A stretch of DNA of 33,313 nucleotides from an uncultured Candidatus Saccharibacteria bacterium. Lineage in GTDB: Bacteria > Patescibacteriota > Minisyncoccia > UBA6257 > WO2-44-18. Made by a program: the position numbers and the translations under genes. The stretch spans positions 1-33,313 of the forward strand of contig CAYGEK010000005.1 in NCBI GenBank assembly GCA_964348885.1. Direction: 5' to 3'. Position 1 is the first letter of the stretch; every line of letters begins with the position of its first letter. The notes beneath the pieces are model-generated. The model had not been told where the DNA came from. It searched no databases and was given only the letters and a program-made list of their open reading frames with translations. Positions 4,274 through 33,313 of the stretch are shown here, piece after piece.

Positions 4274-4540
4274 TTGGAAAATCCCGCGGGTTGGAATGAA
4301 ACCAAAAAGTTGATCGCTCGCGCGCGAGGGGAAGGCGATAATTTCAAATACGCAGTTTTCGCTGAACTTGCCAGTGCCGGAAAATTGAAATCTGACGCGA
4401 AAAGCGAATTGGTCATGGAAGCGATCGCGGAGGCGCAGCGTGACGCCGAAGAGGCGGTCCGAGTGCGCCTCTCTGGAATTTCTTTGGTCAGTCGCATTTA
4501 CAACAAACTTCAAGACAAGGGTTTTCTCACCGGCGAATAG
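4274..4540 (+). CDS. Hypothetical small protein (88 aa, TTG start)
   Basis: SD AAGGAGAGG at 4261-4269 precedes the TTG. An intrinsic terminator follows directly. No family recognised. Confidence 0.5.
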   Translation: MENPAGWNETKKLIARARGEGDNFKYAVFAELASAGKLKSDAKSELVMEAIAEAQRDAEEAVRVRLSGISLVSRIYNKLQDKGFLTGE

Positions 4541-4551
4541 CCGGTTTTTTA
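4529..4551 (+). terminator. Intrinsic terminator
   Basis: ACCGGC / GCCGGT stem with the stop codon in the loop, followed by TTTTTT. Confidence 0.8.
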
Positions 4552-4647: not shown

Positions 4648-4746
4648 TTGACCCCCACACCAAACGAGAAGTGCCGCCTTTCTGGGATTGACATGCTCCT
4701 CGTTATGGTGTGGGGGTTGACAAGGCGAGTAAAAGTAATATATACT
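4648..4746 (+). promoter_or_regulatory. Palindrome-plus-promoter module, copy 1 (upstream of rpoB)
   Basis: Arms TTGACCCCCACACCAAACGAG (4648-4668) and CTCGTTATGGTGTGGGGGTTGACA (4699-4722). TTGACA at 4717-4722, an 18-nt spacer, then TATACT at 4741-4746. The arms are identical to those of the copies at 15620 and 16097. Confidence 0.6.
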
Positions 4747-4759
4747 CTAGATAACTTAA

Positions 4760-4812
4760 AACCTTATCAATTCCGTTTTTAAAACGGACTTTAGGTTTTT
4801 GTCGCTTTTCGC
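4760..4812 (+). promoter_or_regulatory. Terminator-like hairpin early in the rpoB leader (candidate attenuator)
   Basis: AACCT..TCCGTTTTTAAAACGGA..AGGTT hairpin followed by TTTTTGTCGCTTTT. It lies about 10-60 nt after the predicted transcription start. Confidence 0.4.
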
Positions 4813-4988
4813 GTTATCGATCCGCGAATCGCATTCTTTTTCCGGAATGACTGCTCAATTGGCAGCGAGGAATGAGTGAATAGCAATTCATTTATTCCGA
4901 GCGAACCAATTGGAGAAACGCAGTTTCGATTAATGGTGGTGGAGGAAAAAGAAAAAAATATTATAAAAAATCAAATCATTTCGGCCGA

Positions 4989-7900
4989 ATGATTAATAAA
5001 TTACCCACCAAAGTTTTCTCCACTCATCCTGGAGCGTTATTTGAGCAGCCAAACCTAGTCGAAATCCAAACCCAGTCCTACAACTGGTTCCTCAAAGGAG
5101 GTCTCTCGGAATTATTCGAAGAGACATTCCCGATGAAGGACTACGCGGGCAAGGACATTGAACTCAAGTTCGTAGATTCTTTCTTTGACGAACCGAAGTA
5201 CGATGAAGCCTACGCGAAATATAAAGACCTGACTTTTGAAGCTCCGCTTCGCGTCAAACTGAAACTTATCAATAATAAAACCAAAGACACCAAAGAACAG
5301 GAGGTGTACTTCGGTGATTTTCCGGTGATGACTCCGCGCGGTACCTTCATCATCAACGGCGTTGAGCGTGTGGTGGTTCCGCAGTTGATTCGTTCTTCCG
5401 GCGCGTACTTCACCGCCAACTTGTATCGCGGCCGCAAATTCTTCGGCGCGAAAGTAATTCCGAATCGCGGCGCGTGGCTGGAGTTGGAAACTGATCCGGA
5501 CGGAGTGATCAGCGTTAAAATTGATCGCAAGCGCAAAGCTCCGATCTCCAACTTGCTCCGCATTTTTGGCATGACCGAGAATGACGACATCATGAAAACG
5601 TTCGCCGATGTGGACAACGGCGATACGAAATACATGGCCGCGACTTTGAAGAAAGATTCCGCGAAGAACAAGGACGAATCTTATATTGAAATCTACAAGC
5701 GCATCCGCCCGGGCGATCTCGCCACGGTGGAAAACGCTTCCAGCTTGATTGACGCTATGTTCCAGCGCTTGGATCGTTATGATCTTTCCGCGGTAGGCCG
5801 TTACCAGTTCAATCAGCGCCTCGGCGCCGCCGGCATCAAGAGCGAATCCCGTCTCTTGGAGCTTGCCGACCTGGTCGCCATCGTTAAAGAGGTGATTCGG
5901 ATGAACAACAGCCAGAATATGGAGCCGGATGATATCGATCACCTCGGTAACCGCCGCGTTCGCGCGGTCGGTGAATTATTGCAGAACAAATTCCGCCTCG
6001 GCCTTGCCCGTATGCGCCGCATTGTGCAGGACCGAATGTCTACCTTGGAGCCGAACACGCTTACCCCGGTGCAGTTGATCAACGCCCGTCCGTTGATGTC
6101 CGCCGTGAAAGAGTTCTTCTCCTCTTCCCAGCTCTCTCAATTCATGGACCAGGTCAATCCGTTGGCCGAATTGGAGCACAAGCGCCGTTTGTCCGCGATG
6201 GGTCCCGGCGGTCTTACGCGTGAGCGCGCCGGCTTTGAAGTTCGTGACGTGCACCACTCCCACTACGGCCGCATCTGCCCGATCGAAACTCCGGAAGGCG
6301 CCAACATCGGTTTGGTTAACCATTTGGCGAGCTACGCCCGTATTAACGACCTCGGTTTTATTGAAACTCCTTATGCAGTAGTGAAGAACGGAAAAGTAAC
6401 CAAAGAAGTCCTCTGGTTAAACGCTTTAGAGGAAGAGCGCAAAAATATCGCCCACGCCGGTGTGCCTTTTGATGAGAAGGGTAACTTGATTGGCGAGGTT
6501 ATTGAAGCCCGTATTAATGGAGAGCCTGGTACTTGCCTCAAGTCCGAGGTTCATTTAATTGATATCGCTCCGAACCAGACCGTGTCCGTGGCGACTTCCC
6601 TGATTCCTTTCTTGGAGCACGACGACGCCAACCGCGCTTTGATGGGTTCCAACATGCAACGGCAGGCTGTCGTTTCCGTAAAATCCAGCGCTCCGTTCGT
6701 GAGCACCGGTATGGAAGATAAAGCGGCCTATGATTCCGGGCACCTTATTTTGGCTACAAAGGATGGCGTTATAGATGAAGTAGACGCCAAGCATATCACT
6801 TTGAAGACCAAAGACGGGGATAAGATTGAATATCCTTTGAACAAGTTCAAGCGTTCCAACCAGTTCACCTGCATCTCCCAGCGTCCGTTGATCGCCAAGG
6901 GCGACAAAGTGAAGAAGGGTCAGGTGTTGGCGGACGGTCCGTCCACCGACAACGGCGTATTGGCGCTCGGCCAGAACCTCGTTGTAGCTTTCCTTTCCTT
7001 TGAAGGTTCCAACTTTGAGGACGCGATCGTGCTTTCCGAACGGGTAGTGGAGAACGACAACTTCACTTCTATTCATATTGAAGATTATTACTGCGATGTC
7101 CGCGACACCAAACTCGGACCGGAAATCACCACTCCGGATATTCCGAACGTGTCCGAAGAGAAACTGAAGAACTTGGACGAAGAGGGTATCGTCCGCATCG
7201 GCGCGGAAGTTAAATCCGGCGACATTTTGGTTGGTAAAATTTCTCCGAAAGGCGAGAGTGAGCTGACCTCGGAAGAGCGCTTGCTTCGCGCTATCTTCGG
7301 CGAAAAAGCCCGTGACGTTAAGGACACTTCCATCACCGTGCCTCACGGTAAGAATGGCCGCGTTATCGGTATCAAGATCTTCTCCCGCGAGCGCGGTGAC
7401 AAGCTGGAGCCCGGTATCATCAAGCGCATCCAGGTGGAAATCGCTCAGCTTCGTAAAGTACGCGCTGGCGACAAGCTCGCCGGACGCCACGGCAACAAGG
7501 GTGTAATTTCCCAGGTTCGCCCGGTAGAGGATATGCCTTATTTAGAAGACGGTACTCCGGTGGACGTAGTTTTGAATCCGCTCGGTGTGGCTTCCCGTAT
7601 GAACCTCGGACAAATTCTTGAAGTCCATTTGGGTTGGGCCGCGAAGAAGCTCGGCTATCGCGCCATTACTCCGGTACTCGCCGGAGCCACGGAAGAGCAG
7701 ATTAAGGAAGAGCTGAAGGCGGCGGGATTGCCGACCACGGGCAAGGTGCCGTTGTATGACGGCCGCACCGGTAAACAGTTCGCGCAACCGGTTATGGTTG
7801 GCGTAATGTATATGTTGAAACTCAACCACTTGGTAGAGGACAAGATTCATATGCGTTCTATCGGTCCTTATTCTTTGATTACCCAGCAGCCGCTCGGCGG

Positions 7901-8189
7901 TAAGGCGCAGTTCGGCGGTCAGCGTTTCGGCGAGATGGAAGTCTGGGCTTTGGAAGGCTACGGCGCCGCGCACACTTTGCAGGAAATGTTGACGGTCAAA
8001 TCGGACGACGTCGTGGGACGCTCCGCGGTTTACGAGGCGATCATCCGGGGAGGCGAAATCAAAGCGCCCAACATCCCGGCCTCTTTCAACGTGTTGGTGA
8101 GTGAGTTGAAAGCTCTCGGCCTGAATGTGGAGCTGGTTGGAGCCGACTTAGACAAAAAGGGCGGAAGGAAGATGGAAGACAGCCACTAA
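4989..8189 (+). CDS. rpoB: DNA-directed RNA polymerase subunit beta
   Basis: 1066 aa. Unmistakable RpoB motifs ([16 protein letters not shown]-like, [10 protein letters not shown]). Confidence 0.98.
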
Positions 8190-8198
8190 AATAAACCT

Positions 8199-11759
<3,561 letters not shown>

Positions 11760-11782
11760 TGCTAAAGTAGGCGAAACTAAAA

Positions 11783-12190
11783 ATGAACGACGAAACAAAA
11801 AAAGAATATGAGATTTCCTTCCTTCTGGCGACTCCGGAAGGGGAGAAAGAGCTGAATGGAATACTCGCTAAGCTCGGCGCGGAAGTTTTCTTCCAGAAGC
11901 CGGCAAGCTCTATCCAGTTGGCTTATAAGATTCAGCGCCACTCCTCGGCTATGTTCGGCTACTATCACTTCCGGGCCACGCCTGCGGTGCTCAAGGAAAT
12001 GAAAGACGCTTTGAATCTGGCTACGGGCGTGCTGCGCTTTCTGATACTGACGCCTCCGGTAAAAATGCCGGTCGCGACAACCGAGCAGGTAGAAAGGGGA
12101 GCGACACGCGTCGAGAAGAAGCCGGTTGCCGAATCCAGAATGCTCAGCAACGAAGCATTGTCGGAAAAGTTGGAAGAAATTTTGAAGTAA
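11783..12190 (+). CDS. rpsF: 30S ribosomal protein S6 (with C-terminal extension)
   Basis: N-terminal YEISFLL... S6 pattern. Sits in the conserved rpsF-ssb-rpsR order. Confidence 0.85.
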   Translation: MNDETKKEYEISFLLATPEGEKELNGILAKLGAEVFFQKPASSIQLAYKIQRHSSAMFGYYHFRATPAVLKEMKDALNLATGVLRFLILTPPVKMPVATTEQVERGATRVEKKPVAESRMLSNEALSEKLEEILK

Positions 12191-12205
12191 GAGTATATTG
12201 AGAAT

Positions 12206-12643
12206 ATGAACCTGAACAAAGTCTTCATCTTAGGCAGATTGACCGCCGATCCGGTTCTCCGCGCTACTCCTTCCGGCCAGCAGGTCGCCAGCTTCTCGCT
12301 CGCGACGAACCGGGTATGGAACGATAAAGCCGGTCAGAAGCAGGAAGCGGTTGAGTTTCACAACATCGTGGTCTGGGGACGCCAGGCGGAGGTTGCCAGC
12401 AAGTTTCTTACCAAAGGCGGCCTCGCCCTCATTGAGGGGCGCATGCAAACCCGCGGCTGGCAGGATAAGCAGGGCCAGAATCGTAAGACTACTGAGATTA
12501 TCGCAGAGCGCATCCAGCTTGGACCGCGCGCCGGTGGTGGGGCTCCGAAGGGCGACTATAATGCTCCCGCCGCCCATAATGAAGCTCCCGTGCCGACGAT
12601 AGAGATAGAGGAAGACATGAAGTCAGAGGATGTTCCATTCTAA
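12206..12643 (+). CDS. ssb: Single-stranded DNA-binding protein
   Basis: OB-fold N-terminus MNLNKVFILGRLTADP. Gly/Pro-rich linker. Acidic tip ending in DVPF. Confidence 0.95.
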   Translation: MNLNKVFILGRLTADPVLRATPSGQQVASFSLATNRVWNDKAGQKQEAVEFHNIVVWGRQAEVASKFLTKGGLALIEGRMQTRGWQDKQGQNRKTTEIIAERIQLGPRAGGGAPKGDYNAPAAHNEAPVPTIEIEEDMKSEDVPF

Positions 12644-12857
12644 AATTATGATTAAACCTACACAGTGCATATTTTGCTCCCAGAATATAGAAGTCATTGA
12701 TTACAAGGACGCGGCTTTTTTGCGCCGTTTTGTTTCCAGCTCCGCCAAGATTACCGACCCACGTTATACGGGAAGTTGCGCCCGTCATCAGCGGAGACTC
12801 GCGGAAGCCGTTAAGCGCTCACGCTATATGGGATTGCTGGCCTTCGTCCGTCGTTAA
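12630..12857 (+). CDS. rpsR: 30S ribosomal protein S18 (the true start may be the ATG at 12648)
   Basis: S18 pattern IDYKD..LRRFVS...KI..RYTG.C..HQR.L..A.KR.R. Confidence 0.9.
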   Translation: MFHSKIMIKPTQCIFCSQNIEVIDYKDAAFLRRFVSSSAKITDPRYTGSCARHQRRLAEAVKRSRYMGLLAFVRR

Positions 12858-12860
12858 TCT

Positions 12861-13391
12861 ATGAATTTGGAGGTTAATATTTTTCAAGCCTTGAATGGGC
12901 TCGTAAACCAGTCGGGAATCCTCGACTGGTTTATCGTTTTTCTTGGAAATTATTCAGCGTATCTGATCGTAGTCTTGGCGGTCTGGTGGATCTGGCGGGA
13001 AAAGAATTGGCGGCTGCAGCTTTATCACTCTTCTTTTATCGCCTTAGCAATCATTATCTCCCGCGGTATCCTGACTCCGATTATAAGATTTTTGCATTCG
13101 CGTCCGCGTCCCTTCGAGTTGATGGATTTCAATCAGCTGATCAATCATGATGCCGGTGCCTCCTTGCCTTCCGGTCACGCCGCCTTTTTCTTCGCCCTGG
13201 CTTTCGCGATTTATTTTTCCGGATACCGGAAGCGTGGCGTTTTTCTGCTGGTGGCGACGTTGCTGATGGGCGCGTCTCGCGTAGCCGGCGGGGTGCACTG
13301 GCCGTTGGATATTGTTGCCGGCCTGTTAACTGGACTAATCGGTGCTGTCGTGGTAAAATCATTGCTTCCCAGAACTTTGATTACTAAATAA
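12861..13391 (+). CDS. PAP2-family phosphatase (undecaprenyl-diphosphatase-like membrane protein)
   Basis: PAP2 motifs PSGHAA and GVHWPLDIV. Several TM helices. Confidence 0.8.
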   Translation: MNLEVNIFQALNGLVNQSGILDWFIVFLGNYSAYLIVVLAVWWIWREKNWRLQLYHSSFIALAIIISRGILTPIIRFLHSRPRPFELMDFNQLINHDAGASLPSGHAAFFFALAFAIYFSGYRKRGVFLLVATLLMGASRVAGGVHWPLDIVAGLLTGLIGAVVVKSLLPRTLITK

Positions 13392-13401
13392 GGAGATACA
13401 A

Positions 13402-13626
13402 GTGGAGGAAGAAAGCGATTGGGTACTTCTCTTGAGTCCGTTTGATAGGAATATTTCATTAACCGACCGTTTCATACGCGCACTTTGCTTGTTTGGCATG
13501 GCAAATATTGCGCCGGTAGTCCCTTCCTTCCTTATAGGTCTGTCAGCTCATGGAGACTGGGGGATGGCCGTTGATTTTGTTAATCAAGGGATTGCAAGAT
13601 TTTTCAAGACATTAGCAGGAGGTTAG
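13402..13626 (+). CDS. Possible small protein (74 aa, GTG start). The interval could instead be a non-coding leader.
   Basis: SD AGGAG at 13391-13395 lies 6 nt before the GTG. The stop TAG directly abuts the next ATG (TAGATG). One hydrophobic segment. No homology recognised. Confidence 0.35.
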   Translation: MEEESDWVLLLSPFDRNISLTDRFIRALCLFGMANIAPVVPSFLIGLSAHGDWGMAVDFVNQGIARFFKTLAGG

Positions 13627-14244
13627 ATGCGCTGGTTCTGGTCCAAGTACCGGTCCGGAATACTGACGGCGGTTTTGCCCATGGTGGTCATTCTGGTAGT
13701 TCTCCAAATTGGAGAAGCAATCTGGAATGCCGCCGGTTATTTCAACGAGAAAATTATAGGGACCGTTTTCGGTCATTGGCTGTTTCTGATCTTTCTGTTG
13801 CTTCTGCCGTTTCTGGCCGGCTTCCTGATGTCTTGGAAAGGCTTTCGGGAACTGGGCCTGCGAATCTGCAATAAGATACCCATCGTCTCTATTTTCGCGA
13901 GCTATCTTTTCAACAAGGAAGACGCGGACAGATTGGCGAAAGGTAAATTCCCGGAAGTAATCTTTGAGTACGTTGCCGGCAGCTGGGCAATCGGACAGGT
14001 GATGAACGAGGTGATGTTGCCCATCTATCCCGGTAATCCTTCCGGGGAAAAAGTGAAGTGGCTGTTGATAGTCGGCCCAGCTACTACGCCGCTTTCGGTG
14101 ACCGGTCAGCTGATCCTGCGTCGGGAGTGTAACGTTATGTATACCGGCCGGTTCATTAAAGACACGATGCTGACGGTGGCGTCGTTGGGTCTGAATTTGA
14201 ACCTGGATCCGAAGAAGTTTTCCAAAGAAGAGCCCGCGGCTTAA
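13627..14244 (+). CDS. Hypothetical polytopic membrane protein (possibly DUF502-like)
   Basis: SD GCAGGAGG upstream. Two clear N-terminal TM helices. Preferred over the longer antisense ORF 13612..14355, whose translation is R/Q/H-rich and looks like junk. Confidence 0.6.
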   Translation: MRWFWSKYRSGILTAVLPMVVILVVLQIGEAIWNAAGYFNEKIIGTVFGHWLFLIFLLLLPFLAGFLMSWKGFRELGLRICNKIPIVSIFASYLFNKEDADRLAKGKFPEVIFEYVAGSWAIGQVMNEVMLPIYPGNPSGEKVKWLLIVGPATTPLSVTGQLILRRECNVMYTGRFIKDTMLTVASLGLNLNLDPKKFSKEEPAA

Positions 14245-14271
14245 GCCCGGGCTCTTATTATTAAGGCGGGA

Positions 14272-15281: not shown

Positions 15282-15614
15282 ATGAAGTTTGAATTGAAAA
15301 ATTTTGGCGGCAATCTTCCCGATTTCATGCGGTCGGCCGGTTATCGCAATGACGGCATAGATCAGAAGACAAAGGAGCTATGCTTTTACAAAGCTCTCTC
15401 GGAAGGCTTGTACCCGCGTTTTCACGTGTATGCCGTTTGGGGCAAAGGGGATAGCGCTACTTTGAGCCTTCATCTAGACCAGAAAGCCCCGGTATACGCG
15501 GGATCAGCGGCGCATTCAGGGGATTATGAAGGGCCGGTAGTGGAAAAAGAGGCTGATCGGATACGCAACTCCGCTCCCAAGGCCTCTGACTTCCTTATTC
15601 GCCCGCTTGATTAG
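15282..15614 (+). CDS. Hypothetical protein (110 aa)
   Basis: ORF with host-like composition. No family recognised. No SD; the start is preceded directly by the inverted-repeat arm. Confidence 0.55.
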   Translation: MKFELKNFGGNLPDFMRSAGYRNDGIDQKTKELCFYKALSEGLYPRFHVYAVWGKGDSATLSLHLDQKAPVYAGSAAHSGDYEGPVVEKEADRIRNSAPKASDFLIRPLD

Positions 15615-15619
15615 TAGTA

Positions 15620-15714
15620 TTGACCCCCACACCAAACGAGGATCAGCTTCGCTGACCGGCAGGAATCCTCGTTATGGTGTGGGGGTTGACATTTGCCATA
15701 CAATATGGTATATT
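15620..15714 (+). promoter_or_regulatory. Palindrome-plus-promoter module, copy 2
   Basis: The 73 bp at 15619-15691 are identical to 16096-16168. TTGACA at 15686-15691, a 17-nt spacer, then TATATT at 15709-15714. SD GAGGAGGG at 15729-15736, then the ATG at 15744. Confidence 0.65.
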
Positions 15715-15743
15715 TTTATGAGAAAATTGAGGAGGGTTAAGCT

Positions 15744-16013
15744 ATGAATCAGCTGCGGATCAGGCAGGCCATCTCCGCGCTTTCGGATCAGTACGAGCTG
15801 GCGACCCGATCCGACGGCGAGGCCGTGGCGAGTGAGGGGGACGCCTTGGAGTGCGGTCTGGAGATCCTGACCCCCGACGAGCTGCGTCGCCGCCTTCAGA
15901 GCCATCTGGCGCGCGAGCAGAATATCGCCGGTCACGTAGGCCAGCTCTACCGGAACGCGCGTCAGGCGCGCGCCGAGGGCGTGGACCTGGACAAGCTCGC
16001 CGAGGAGAGTTAG
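15744..16013 (+). CDS. Small GC3-rich hypothetical protein A (89 aa)
   Basis: Consensus promoter, strong SD and ATG upstream. By hand count about 75 of 89 codons end in G/C, far above neighbouring genes. An intrinsic terminator follows. Confidence 0.6.
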   Translation: MNQLRIRQAISALSDQYELATRSDGEAVASEGDALECGLEILTPDELRRRLQSHLAREQNIAGHVGQLYRNARQARAEGVDLDKLAEES

Positions 16014-16041
16014 GCTGGAGGAAGCTTCGCTCCCTTAGGAC

Positions 16042-16077
16042 ATCCCCTTATCGCCAATCGGCATAAGGGGATTTTTA
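16042..16077 (+). terminator. Intrinsic terminator after ORF A
   Basis: ATCCCCTTAT(C)GCC / GGCATAAGGGGAT stem followed by TTTTT. Confidence 0.8.
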
Positions 16078-16096
16078 ATGCGTCAGAAGCAGGGGA

Positions 16097-16191
16097 TTGA
16101 CCCCCACACCAAACGAGGATCAGCTTCGCTGACCGGCAGGAATCCTCGTTATGGTGTGGGGGTTGACAAATTAGGTTTAGTATGCTATATT
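16097..16191 (+). promoter_or_regulatory. Palindrome-plus-promoter module, copy 3
   Basis: Identical palindrome to copy 2. TTGACA at 16163-16168, a 17-nt spacer, then TATATT at 16186-16191. SD TAGGAGGG at 16215-16222, then the ATG at 16229. Confidence 0.65.
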
Positions 16192-16228: not shown

Positions 16229-16387
16229 ATGGACAATCTGGGCGCGGACAAGGAATCCGAGGAAGTGCTGGAGGAGCTGGACCAGGAGAGCGAGGTCCTG
16301 AAGAAGGACTGGCATCACCGGCGGCCCCTGCAGCTCGTGGATCCCACGACCGGCCTGATGGCCAGAGCGATCGGGATCTTCCAGTAG
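16229..16387 (+). CDS. Small GC3-rich hypothetical protein B (52 aa, acidic N-terminal half; starts MDNL)
   Basis: ATG 6 nt after the SD. About 46 of 52 codons end in G/C by hand count. The ORF-track start at 16190 lies inside the -10 element, so I trimmed it. Confidence 0.55.
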   Translation: MDNLGADKESEEVLEELDQESEVLKKDWHHRRPLQLVDPTTGLMARAIGIFQ

Positions 16388-16642: not shown

Positions 16643-16861
16643 ATGGACAATCTTAACGGTTACGGATTGAACGTGAACGCCGGCGCGGACGCCGACGATG
16701 ACGAGCAGTTCGTGAACGAGCTTCGCGAGGGGCGGAGCGGCTGGTCCCGGGCGATGCGCGCGATGAATCGCGGGTATCACGCGAGGCAGCCGCGGACCAT
16801 CAATCTGGAAGGTTCCGGCGAAATCGAGGTGGGCAAGGGAGCCATCATCCGGCAGTTCTAG
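16643..16861 (+). CDS. Small GC3-rich hypothetical protein C (72 aa; starts MDNL, like ORF B)
   Basis: GGGAGGG SD-like run before the ATG. About 59 of 72 codons end in G/C. Shares the N-terminal MDNL and an acidic-then-basic layout with ORF B. Confidence 0.5.
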   Translation: MDNLNGYGLNVNAGADADDDEQFVNELREGRSGWSRAMRAMNRGYHARQPRTINLEGSGEIEVGKGAIIRQF

Positions 16862-23939: not shown

Positions 23940-23991
23940 TTGACATACTCTAATTAATAGTGTATTATATGCGAGTAAGTAGCACATCCAA
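23940..23991. promoter_or_regulatory. Overlapping divergent promoter candidates that share the -10 region
   Basis: Plus strand: TTGACA 23940-23945, 17-nt spacer, TATTAT 23963-23968. Minus strand: TTGGAT (rc of 23986-23991), 16-nt spacer, TATAAT (rc of 23964-23969). Confidence 0.45.
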
Positions 23992-24213
23992 ATAGCTGCC
24001 TCCGGGCAGCTCCCTAGTCGGAATTCATACAAAAAGCAGCTTATTCAGTAATTTCAGTTTTTGAGTTAGAGGAAGCGTTAGTAGTTTGTGTGTAGATTCT
24101 AGTGTTACCGCCATGGGCGGGCAAAGAATGAAAGAATTAGAAAGTAGATAGATTGTGACTAGGGAGCTGATTTGAGGGAAAGAGCTCGGGCTTTAAGCCC
24201 GGGCTCTTTTGTT
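23975..24213 (+). ncRNA. Structured leader or small RNA (about 240 nt) between the + strand promoter and alaS, ending in an intrinsic terminator
   Basis: Perfect 12-bp long-range helix AGCTCCCTAGTC 24008-24019 with GACTAGGGAGCT 24157-24168. Local hairpins at 23994-24011 and CCGCC-ATG-GGCGG. Terminator at 24179-24213. Confidence 0.4.
24179..24213 (+). terminator. Intrinsic terminator 15 nt upstream of the alaS ATG
   Basis: AGAGCTCGGGCTT / AAGCCCGGGCTCT stem followed by TTTTGTT. It closely resembles the hairpin at 14229-14258. Confidence 0.7.
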
Positions 24214-32716: not shown

Positions 32717-33145
32717 ATGACACCTGTAAAGAAAACAACTGAAAAATTAGTGAAGACTGTTGTGCGTTTCTTCTCCGCCAAAGGAGGCCGAAAGAGCGCG
32801 AATGCTAGCGCTCGTGTATTTTCCGGTAAAGGTATCCTGGTCAACGACAAGGACTACAAGCAGTATTTCAAAACTTTGCGTAATCAGATTACCGCCTTCG
32901 CTCCATTTGACGCTTTGAAGATTCACGAGAAGATGGGCGCCTCCGTTCACGTATCCGGTGGTGGCATTAATGCCCAGGCGGACGCGGTTCGTAACGCGAT
33001 TGCCCGCGCCTTGGCGAAAGCCGATGAGAGCCTTAAGGGCACTCTCCGCCGCTCCGGTTTCATGACCCGTGATTCCCGTGTTGTTGAGCGTAAGAAGCCG
33101 GGCAAGCTCAAAGCTCGCCGCAGTCCGCAGTGGGCTAAGCGTTAA
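32717..33145 (+). CDS. rpsI: 30S ribosomal protein S9 (ATG at 32717 preferred over the TTG at 32705)
   Basis: C-terminal ...GG.NAQADA.R.AIARAL.......R..L...GF.TRD.R.VERKK.G..KARR..Q..KR S9 signature. Confidence 0.92.
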   Translation: MTPVKKTTEKLVKTVVRFFSAKGGRKSANASARVFSGKGILVNDKDYKQYFKTLRNQITAFAPFDALKIHEKMGASVHVSGGGINAQADAVRNAIARALAKADESLKGTLRRSGFMTRDSRVVERKKPGKLKARRSPQWAKR

Positions 33146-33156
33146 AGAAAATCAAA

Positions 33157-33181
33157 AACACCCCTTGCGGGGTGTTTTTGT
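33157..33181 (+). terminator. Intrinsic terminator after rpsI
   Basis: AACACCCC-TTGC-GGGGTGTT followed by TTTTG. Confidence 0.85.
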
Positions 33182-33240
33182 GTAATGAAAGTATTGGCTT
33201 CACGGTCATATAATCGGTATACTACAACTATCTTTTTCCG

Positions 33241-33313
33241 ATGAAATTCATTATCAATGGCGGCAAAAAACTTAACGGGGAGATCAGGCTTGCGGGCGCG
33301 AAGAACGCGGCCA
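33241..33313 (+). CDS. murA: UDP-N-acetylglucosamine 1-carboxyvinyltransferase, N-terminal fragment (runs off the right edge)
   Basis: MKFIINGGKKLNGEIRLAGAKNAA matches the MurA N-terminal signature (..G...L.G.v..sGaKNaa). Confidence 0.8.
   Translation, partial: MKFIINGGKKLNGEIRLAGAKNAA

Follow-up and report, generated by a model that had tools for sequence, protein, structure and literature searches.

Hairpins at the -35 boxes of a Patescibacteria contig are very probably gene-less members of a mobile-element family with GIY-YIG-bearing relatives

The Ssn proteins are single-domain GIY-YIG nucleases of about 94 amino acids (aa) that cut single-stranded DNA (ssDNA) beside NTS/SRM hairpin repeats, and the ssnA gene is itself flanked by NTS repeats in a layout, NTS-ssnA-NTS, that was likened by its authors to an insertion sequence (IS) (Chenal et al. 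2025, Nat Commun, PMC11893778). This is the closest described system to the hairpin family reported here, three copies of which lie in a 33,313-nucleotide (nt) stretch of DNA from an uncultured Candidatus Saccharibacteria bacterium (contig CAYGEK010000005.1, positions 1 to 33,313, assembly GCA_964348885.1; hereafter the window). The family is specific to Patescibacteria (Parcubacteria/Paceibacteria-type lineages), and the window copies are very probably gene-less members, with a core of 62-65 nt, of a hairpin mobile-element family. No published description of this hairpin family was found in the literature on GIY-YIG proteins with terminal inverted repeats (TIRs), target-site duplications or miniature inverted-repeat transposable elements (MITEs), on palindromic elements, or on Patescibacteria.

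The Ssn system and the Patescibacteria family share a small single-domain GIY-YIG protein (~90 aa), a gene bracketed by hairpin repeats that are also dispersed genome-wide, and a hairpin with directional asymmetry. They differ in arrangement: the Ssn gene lies between two complete small hairpins, whereas the Patescibacteria gene lies inside one long hairpin whose arms are its TIRs. The 4-nt flank repeats, empty sites, in-frame insertions and -35 targeting of the Patescibacteria family are not described for Ssn, and Patescibacteria hosts are not mentioned in the Ssn paper (PMC11893778). The family protein is nearest by sequence to members of UPF0213, and the SRM motif HGTCWYN(0-2)YYVSBRHN(0-5)WNVSBRGN(0-2)RNCYNB has no match on either strand of the window.

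The hairpin copies of the window are the following:

15620-15623, + strand: TTGA flank repeat on the left of copy 1, immediately 3' of the TAG TAG stops that end the open reading frame (ORF) at 15282-15614
15624-15685, + strand: hairpin copy 1, 62-nt core, with arms at 15624-15640 and 15668-15685, a bulged A in the right arm and a loop containing TCAGC-TTC-GCTGA
16101-16162, + strand: hairpin copy 2, identical to copy 1, with TTGA flanks at 16097-16100 and 16163-16166
4652-4716, + strand: hairpin copy 3, 65-nt core, with arms as in copies 1 and 2, a different loop, and TTGA flanks at 4648-4651 and 4717-4720

Copies 1 and 2 form two identical modules of 73 nt at 15619-15691 and 16096-16168 (73/73 identical), as the original prediction from the bare sequence had stated, and identity ends exactly at both block borders; past the block, the resemblance of the two regions (89% over 99 nt) is limited to the -10 region. 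The third copy, predicted at 4648-4722 in front of rpoBC with the same arms and another loop, was confirmed, its loop being 30 nt long. The arm CCCCCACACCAWAACGAG occurs three times in the window against 0.05 expected. Single-strand folding bore out the predicted stem of about 20 bp with one bulge and a TCAGC-TTC-GCTGA mini-hairpin, the stem consisting of 11 bp, a 1-nt bulge and 9 bp, with a folding energy of -26.6 kcal/mol for copies 1 and 2 (z = -8.0) and -20.3 kcal/mol for copy 3 (z = -5.2). Judged as MITEs, the window copies are short and non-coding, carry terminal arms of 17/18 nt and number three in the window. The repeated unit is TTGA, a core of 62-65 nt, and TTGA again, so that each '-35' box takes four bases of its hexamer from the direct repeat that flanks the element.

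Copy 1 begins 6 nt past the stop of the ORF at 15282-15614 with no other terminator between, and its stem is very stable; both features would suit a hairpin that acts as RNA, whether as a terminator, as a stabiliser of the 3' end of the upstream transcript in the manner of the repetitive extragenic palindromic (REP) sequences of E. coli, or as a small structured RNA. Such a role is improbable. The stem has no T run after it, and copies 2 and 3 are preceded by terminators that look canonical: upstream of copy 2 a stem-loop and its T run at ~16043-16077, called by eye, and upstream of copy 3 one found by terminator scan at 4529-4545, which places this copy between that terminator and the rpoBC promoter. 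Each element lies upstream of the -35 box of the adjacent promoter and is therefore not transcribed by it, and the cGNAg loops that recur in the family are mini-hairpins of the DNA type. Rfam gave no family matching the hairpin region, with chance-level miRNA matches only, and a tRNA scan of that region found none. An RNA-level effect would at best be a side effect of some copies.

The three copies belong to a widely distributed family. With one genome per species scanned, at least 119 genome loci match the arm pattern, and paired arms were present in nearly all listed loci labelled Patescibacteria or Parcubacteria-type lineages, whereas single-arm matches in other phyla occur in about the number expected by chance (expectation estimated). 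All the DNA examined yielded 217 paired elements, duplicate records of the window copies included. The TIRs of the family read CCCCCACACCA(N)AACGAG, the conserved arms span 17-18 bp, and the arms are separated by 24-272 nt. Stem positions 1-17 hardly vary among 95 distinct elements, while positions 18-20 are variable, 86-95% paired and represented by all four pair types, and pairing ends at position 21; the bulge is fixed after base pair 11 and is an A in 66 of the 95. The covarying pairs and the fixed bulge indicate that the hairpin itself is under constraint. Mini-hairpins of the cGNAg type, a motif that is especially stable in DNA, as known from d(GCGAAGC), are present in 30 of 83 loops, where shuffles give 1.1. 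Dozens of scattered copies, which in the original prediction were to indicate a plain selfish repeat, are thus found for the family as a whole, the source genome being covered over ~43 kb only. The next 10 kb beyond the window, on a sister contig, holds no further hairpin copy. In viral contigs the arm was matched 11 times, always singly and never as a paired element, which gives no sign of phage carriage. A larger autonomous partner resembling IS1380 or piggyBac, an idea that came from the CCC ends and 4-bp flanks, found nothing in its support, and neither arm pairs more than ~310 nt apart nor an IS of at least 1 kb with these ends was seen among the genome loci listed.

Direct repeats at the flanks suggest how the elements are inserted. 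An exact 4-nt direct repeat is present at both flanks of 48 of 101 elements, compared with a mean of 8.5 and a maximum of 19 in partner shuffles, and the peak is at length 4 only. A metagenome sample was selected by arm plus TTGA only and comprised 76 distinct ends, and here the other flank is also TTGA in 54 of 69. The flank 4-mers follow the form T-N-N-A and are specific to subfamilies: TTGA in the window's kind, TTCA/TGAA in the gene-bearing kind described below, and also TTTA. A fifth base is conserved, TTGA being followed by C in 28 of 42 (22/24 in the opposite orientation) and TTCA by T in 13 of 13, which points to the asymmetric targets TTGAC and TTCAT (= ATGAA). The flank repeat is either a true target-site duplication or a target plus terminal tetranucleotide pair in the style of IS200/IS605, and both models lead to the same pre-insertion sequence. 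Tandem pairs with a single common 4-nt flank (..GGGGG-TTTA-CCCCC..) were observed at L002 5200-5342, L011 1543-1689, L020 1067-1221 and L096 2585-2801, the pattern expected if new elements insert into the 4-mer beside one that is already in place.

Two empty orthologous sites were identified in other metagenome-assembled genomes (L034 vs L078 and L207 vs L206), in both of which the inserted length equals the core plus 4 nt and the reading frame is kept. The first lies in a MurD-like gene, with the element at L034 480-547 and missing in L078 7560-7600, and the second in another ORF, with the element at L207 885-955 and missing in L206 at ~891-907; the two insertions add 24-25 codons, e.g. ..WDF|HPHTKRESALLAQKNNYSRYGVGV|NHSP... 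A third candidate pair, L117 and L156, did not align cleanly and was rejected. Insertion in frame is common in the family, as 28 of 102 elements (~27%) lie in frame inside long ORFs and are translated as ..PHTKRG...RYGVGV.. or in related frames.

Each window copy abuts a predicted promoter, and these promoters, the genes downstream of them and one element-free promoter are the following:

15686-15714, + strand: predicted promoter P1, with -35 TTGACA at 15686-15691 (its first four bases being the right TTGA flank), a 17-nt spacer with TG, and -10 TATATT at 15709-15714
15744-16013, + strand: predicted 89-aa orphan ORF downstream of P1
16163-16191, + strand: predicted promoter P2, TTGACA-17-TATATT, a sigma-70 consensus match
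16229-16387, + strand: predicted 52-aa acidic micro-ORF downstream of P2
4717-4746, + strand: predicted rpoBC promoter, TTGACA-18-TATACT, a sigma-70 consensus match
4989-8189 and 8199-11759, + strand: rpoB and rpoC, after a leader of ~240 nt
23940-23968, + strand: element-free promoter, TTGACA-17-TATTAT, an 11/12 match and the sole other 11/12 site in the whole window

The TTGACA and the TATATT 17 nt further on that had been noticed at copies 1 and 2 were confirmed as 11/12 consensus matches, and the leaders and start codons after them are likewise present, with AGGAGGGTT Shine-Dalgarno sequences and an ATG downstream of both copies. The sites at all three copies match the sigma-70 consensus better than any other in that part of the window (11/12 each), and two of them have TG before the -10 box. 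A hairpin occupies three of the window's four TTGACA promoters, and the promoter at 23940 is an unoccupied target of the same kind. Before insertion, the window would have held six intergenic TTGAC sites, of which three are now occupied; the free ones are at 23940 and 14272, both promoter-like, and at ~4570 on the minus strand, which is not promoter-like. In-silico deletion of the element with one TTGA leaves an intact TTGACA-17/18-TATAYT at all three window sites, which indicates that the promoter is older than the insertion. A TTGACA also occurs inside the loop of copy 3, at 4688-4693.

The association with -35 boxes extends across Patescibacteria. In the genome set, a sigma-70-like promoter has its -35 box starting exactly at the element border in 17 of 200 outward flanks, compared with 0-2 at other offsets. 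In the metagenome sample, the bases after TTGA are CA at 37 of the 76 ends against ~5 expected; 14 ends lie inside ORFs, and of the remaining 62 non-ORF ends 47 are promoter-like at offset 0. Among metagenome flanks of at least 100 nt, 48 of 74 are promoter-like at offset 0, compared with 0-2 at offsets 1-59. Three promoter calls (L045, L110 and L207) lie inside ORFs and are false, and the promoter share of intergenic TTGA copies is therefore given as about three quarters rather than exactly. The element is found at promoters in both orientations. Genes downstream of occupied promoters include those for EF-Tu, RpoB (twice), S6, CspA, an RRM protein, ClpP and an aminoacyl-tRNA synthetase, as well as tRNAs and a number of small acidic ORFs. 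Insertion recurs at rpoB: besides the window, two other lineages, with RpoB 74% and 54% identical, have an occupied rpoB promoter, and in one of them the element lies in the opposite orientation, indicating at least two independent insertions. At L236, on the reverse strand, a partial copy of the right half of the element (TCGCCATGACTTATTCACTGCTCGTTAT) lies ~70 nt upstream of the full copy at the rpoB promoter and looks like what is left of a previous insertion at that promoter.

One explanation of this association is that the element carries an outward -35 (TTGAC) and forms hybrid promoters on insertion, switching on downstream genes. Some IS ends and Correia elements create hybrid promoters, and the right junction of the TTGA subfamily always reads GGGGG-TTGAC(A). 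This explanation is nevertheless highly unlikely, given that the 4-mer stands on both sides and varies by subfamily, that both empty sites show insertion of the core plus 4 nt, consistent with the other 4-mer belonging to the target, and that the start-codon reconstructions described below restore ATG and ATGA overlaps. The CA and correctly spaced -10 in the 47 of 62 non-ORF cases, moreover, imply a pre-existing promoter or implausibly strong selection.

A second explanation is exaptation, in which a cruciform-forming or protein-bound palindrome upstream of the -35 box would co-regulate strong growth promoters (rpoBC, tuf, tRNAs and micro-ORFs), perhaps as a sensor of supercoiling or as a binding site for the GIY-YIG protein or some other factor. 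It would account for the exact position of about three quarters of intergenic TTGA-class copies at the -35 box, for the occupied rpoB promoter in three lineages with RpoB 54-74% identical, for the stem covariation that places the structure under constraint, and for the comparison of L045 with L110, where the element is more conserved than its flanks. The orientation at promoters goes both ways, however, the loop is unconstrained in length and sequence, the same element is also found within ORFs in frame, on start codons and between the genes of operons, and the TTCA and TTTA subfamilies are not at promoters. A TTGAC target preference with purifying selection suffices, as all intergenic TTGAC sites of the window are promoter-like except the minus-strand site at ~4570, and exaptation is thus unlikely. 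The narrower proposal of the original prediction, an operator for a dimeric DNA-binding factor, is contradicted by the range of arm spacing, the two orientations at promoters and the share of elements inside ORFs, and the link in expression that it drew between the micro-ORFs and rpoBC is accounted for most simply by their common consensus TTGAC -35, the insertion target of the subfamily.

Relatives of ~300 nt carry a gene. In these members an 85-aa ORF fills the loop between the same arms and encodes GIY-YIG in 10 of 10, and the arms enclose a GIY-YIG ORF in 10/10 genome loci and in 10/10 P0049 loci. The 85-aa protein is a single-domain GIY-YIG protein (PF01541 at 4.5e-15) with Y5, Y16, R26, H30, E62 and N64 invariant, so that all catalytic residues are conserved, and its best PDB and plasmid matches are the UPF0213 proteins BH0048 and YazA. 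A profile of the 85-aa proteins matches at least 7799 protein clusters; the best 120 clusters listed are 85-97 aa long, nearly all exactly 85, and those from named organisms are labelled Patescibacteria, Parcubacteria or Nealsonbacteria. Many of the GIY-YIG cluster members are on short contigs, as multi-copy repeats tend to be.

One 303-nt element (0-3 differences; one exact protein) is found with at least three left flanks and at least three right flanks, always as A-TGAA[element]TGAA, one of these places being the rplI start codon. At L140-L149, three left and three right flanks of one identical 303-nt element are combined in several ways (A-a, A-c, C-a and B-b), suggesting that copies have recombined or that assemblies are chimeric at the repeat. 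Elements of 303 nt sit on ATGAA start codons, at the overlap of the rplN stop and rplX start (L007 3378-3680) and at the rplI start (L141 1453-1755). In reconstructions, deletion of the element with one TGAA gives an ATG start at rplI and at rplN/rplX, and at rplN/rplX an ATGA stop/start overlap; after insertion, the last G of the element and TG form an in-frame GTG at both sites, and the downstream start is kept. A long and a short form occur at the same orthologous site twice (L041/L089 and L099/L093), which fits the short forms as derivatives of the long ones, and the short forms look like non-autonomous derivatives.

A mechanism can be proposed in which insertion adds the core and 4 nt beside a subfamily-specific target, TTGAC in the subfamily of the window and TTCAT (= ATGAA) in the gene-bearing subfamily, so that the 4-mer comes to stand on both sides. 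The GIY-YIG nuclease would probably act on the hairpin in ssDNA, as Ssn nucleases do. In compact genomes nearly every intergenic TTGAC would be a -35 box, and an insertion there would regenerate TTGACA beside its -10 box and so be tolerated, with the consequence that the TTGA subfamily would accumulate exactly at the -35 boxes of the strongest promoters (rpoB, tuf, cspA, tRNAs and small acidic ORFs). We infer that insertions are near-neutral for promoter activity. Judging from the sequences, the 85-aa GIY-YIG protein somewhat probably mobilises the hairpin elements, and that it would suffice alone for this is less likely still. A stronger proposal, that the 303-bp TIR-bounded unit is an autonomous transposon with the 85-aa GIY-YIG nuclease as its sole protein, moving through hairpin/ssDNA intermediates to TTSAY targets, with the gene-less hairpins colonising -35 boxes, start codons and ORFs, is possible but doubtful.

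Several points weigh against these proposals. We know of no GIY-YIG enzyme that catalyses transposition. Flanks are non-identical in 39% of elements, inverted-type pairs such as TTYA...TRAA and TCAA...TTGA included, and such mixed or inverted flanks make simple target-site duplication insufficient without recombination or a mechanism like that of IS200/IS605. Exact-protein look-ups around the three window sites gave filled strain variants only and no empty allele of any window copy, and the window-specific loop does not occur in JGI metagenomes. Neither the window nor the adjoining 10 kb of the sister contig (~43 kb together) holds a GIY-YIG gene, so that a mobilising enzyme of the source genome is hypothetical; the window copies may be fossils. 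The promoter enrichment could, in addition, arise from positive selection for a regulatory role.

Among better-known repeats, REP sequences with their REP-associated tyrosine transposases (RAYT), IS200/IS605, Rickettsia palindromic elements (RPE) and Correia elements appear as functional analogues of the family rather than as its relatives. REP/RAYT and IS200/IS605 systems likewise combine short hairpin repeats, a small nuclease recognising ssDNA hairpins, specific adjacent tetranucleotides, and non-autonomous copies that outnumber the gene. Their enzyme, however, is of the HUH/Y1 type and their hairpins are subterminal, whereas here the enzyme is GIY-YIG, the arms are those of the whole element and the same 4-mer usually stands on both sides; the hairpins lack a GTAG head and their associated ORF is GIY-YIG rather than HUH Y1, and membership in REP/RAYT was rejected. 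RPE, which Ogata and colleagues reportedly described in 2000, are said to be palindromic repeats in frame inside protein genes and translated, like the in-frame copies of the present family; they are unrelated in sequence and host and have no enzyme gene inside, and the window copies are intergenic.

Correia elements of Neisseria (Correia repeat enclosed elements, CREE) and other promoter-associated MITEs are similar in being small, with TIRs and a target-site duplication, beside genes and at functional promoters. In Correia elements the promoter hexamers lie within the inverted repeats and the duplication is TA, whereas here the -35 box is a pre-existing target; membership was rejected on the 4-nt flank repeat (TTGA) and on the -35 box, which begins outside the arm. 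Of the idea of a promoter-carrying REP/Correia-like element in the original prediction, the dispersed, mobile-looking hairpin family therefore holds, whereas the promoter does not belong to the element, which has no hexamer of its own, TTGA being the flank repeat. The piggyBac transposons (TTAA) are alike in the fixed 4 bp on both sides, the CCC.../...GGG ends and the precise in-silico restoration of the site, but the present family has no DDE transposase and its targets (TTGAC and TTCAT) are asymmetric, and the resemblance is probably only formal. Integron attC sites were also considered and rejected: by eye, the arms ..CCAAAC.. / ..GTTATGG.. do not fit RYYYAAC...GTTRRRY core sites, no integrase domain was found among 20 window ORFs scanned with Pfam, and copies lie inside genes and before rpoB.

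The gene content of the window is like that of Patescibacteria (Candidate Phyla Radiation, CPR), with the 23S rRNA end, 5S rRNA, FtsW, YceG, rpoB, rpoC, S6-SSB-S18, tRNA-Pro, DnaG, RpoD and a ribosomal protein/rpoA block all on the + strand. The 89-aa ORF at 15744-16013 has no homologue but itself among 5.8 billion proteins. The small ORFs at 15744-16013, 16229-16387 and 16643-16861 are acidic and have strong Shine-Dalgarno sequences, and two of them begin MDNL; small, very acidic ORFs likewise lie downstream of element-occupied promoters in other Patescibacteria (L183, L199, L203, L226 and L235). The rpoB leader (4747-4988, ~240 nt) has a hairpin with a T run at 4772-4788, right after the promoter, is A-rich before the ATG and has no Rfam match; it may be an attenuator or autoregulatory leader. 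Just past the 5S rRNA gene, a perfect 19-nt inverted repeat at 575-593 / 823-841 (GCCTCTCAGTTTCACATAA / TTATGTGAAACTGAGAGGC), unrelated to the hairpin element, encloses 229 nt. Two palindromic terminator-like sequences of the AAGAGCCCGGGCTTAAGCCCGGGCTCTT type, 86% identical, are located at 14228-14256 and 24180-24208 and may represent a second small repeat family. The sister contig L123 (51 kb, ERZ27247828) has, at 11119-13835, an additional ~2.5 kb that separates rpsI from the gene for EPSP synthase and includes bAvd and a reverse transcriptase in a cassette like a diversity-generating retroelement. This insert is missing from the window end (33145-33313) and from L126, which points to a strain-level presence/absence polymorphism.

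For annotation, these findings mean that the CPR 'promoter motif' is a mobile element together with its insertion target, and that the element needs annotation where it lies in frame in many CPR proteins, to which it adds ~24 residues (..PHTKRG...RYGVGV..). The element also marks the strongest promoters (rpoB, tuf, cspA and tRNAs) in uncultured bacteria. Its target pattern is unusually clean, comprising -35 boxes and ATGAA starts at which the 4-nt flank rebuilds the signal (TTGACA or GTG), and this rebuilding may be what allows a parasite to survive in genomes that have hardly any DNA to spare. For Ssn it was suggested that small GIY-YIG nucleases flanked by hairpins are transposable elements or once were, and the present family, with its flank repeats, its empty sites and its identical copies at different loci, is a natural test of that suggestion. 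If the 303-bp unit is autonomous, it would be the first transposon with a GIY-YIG enzyme, no smaller autonomous DNA transposon would be known, and its gene-less hairpins would be reshaping promoters and proteins across the minimal genomes of Patescibacteria.

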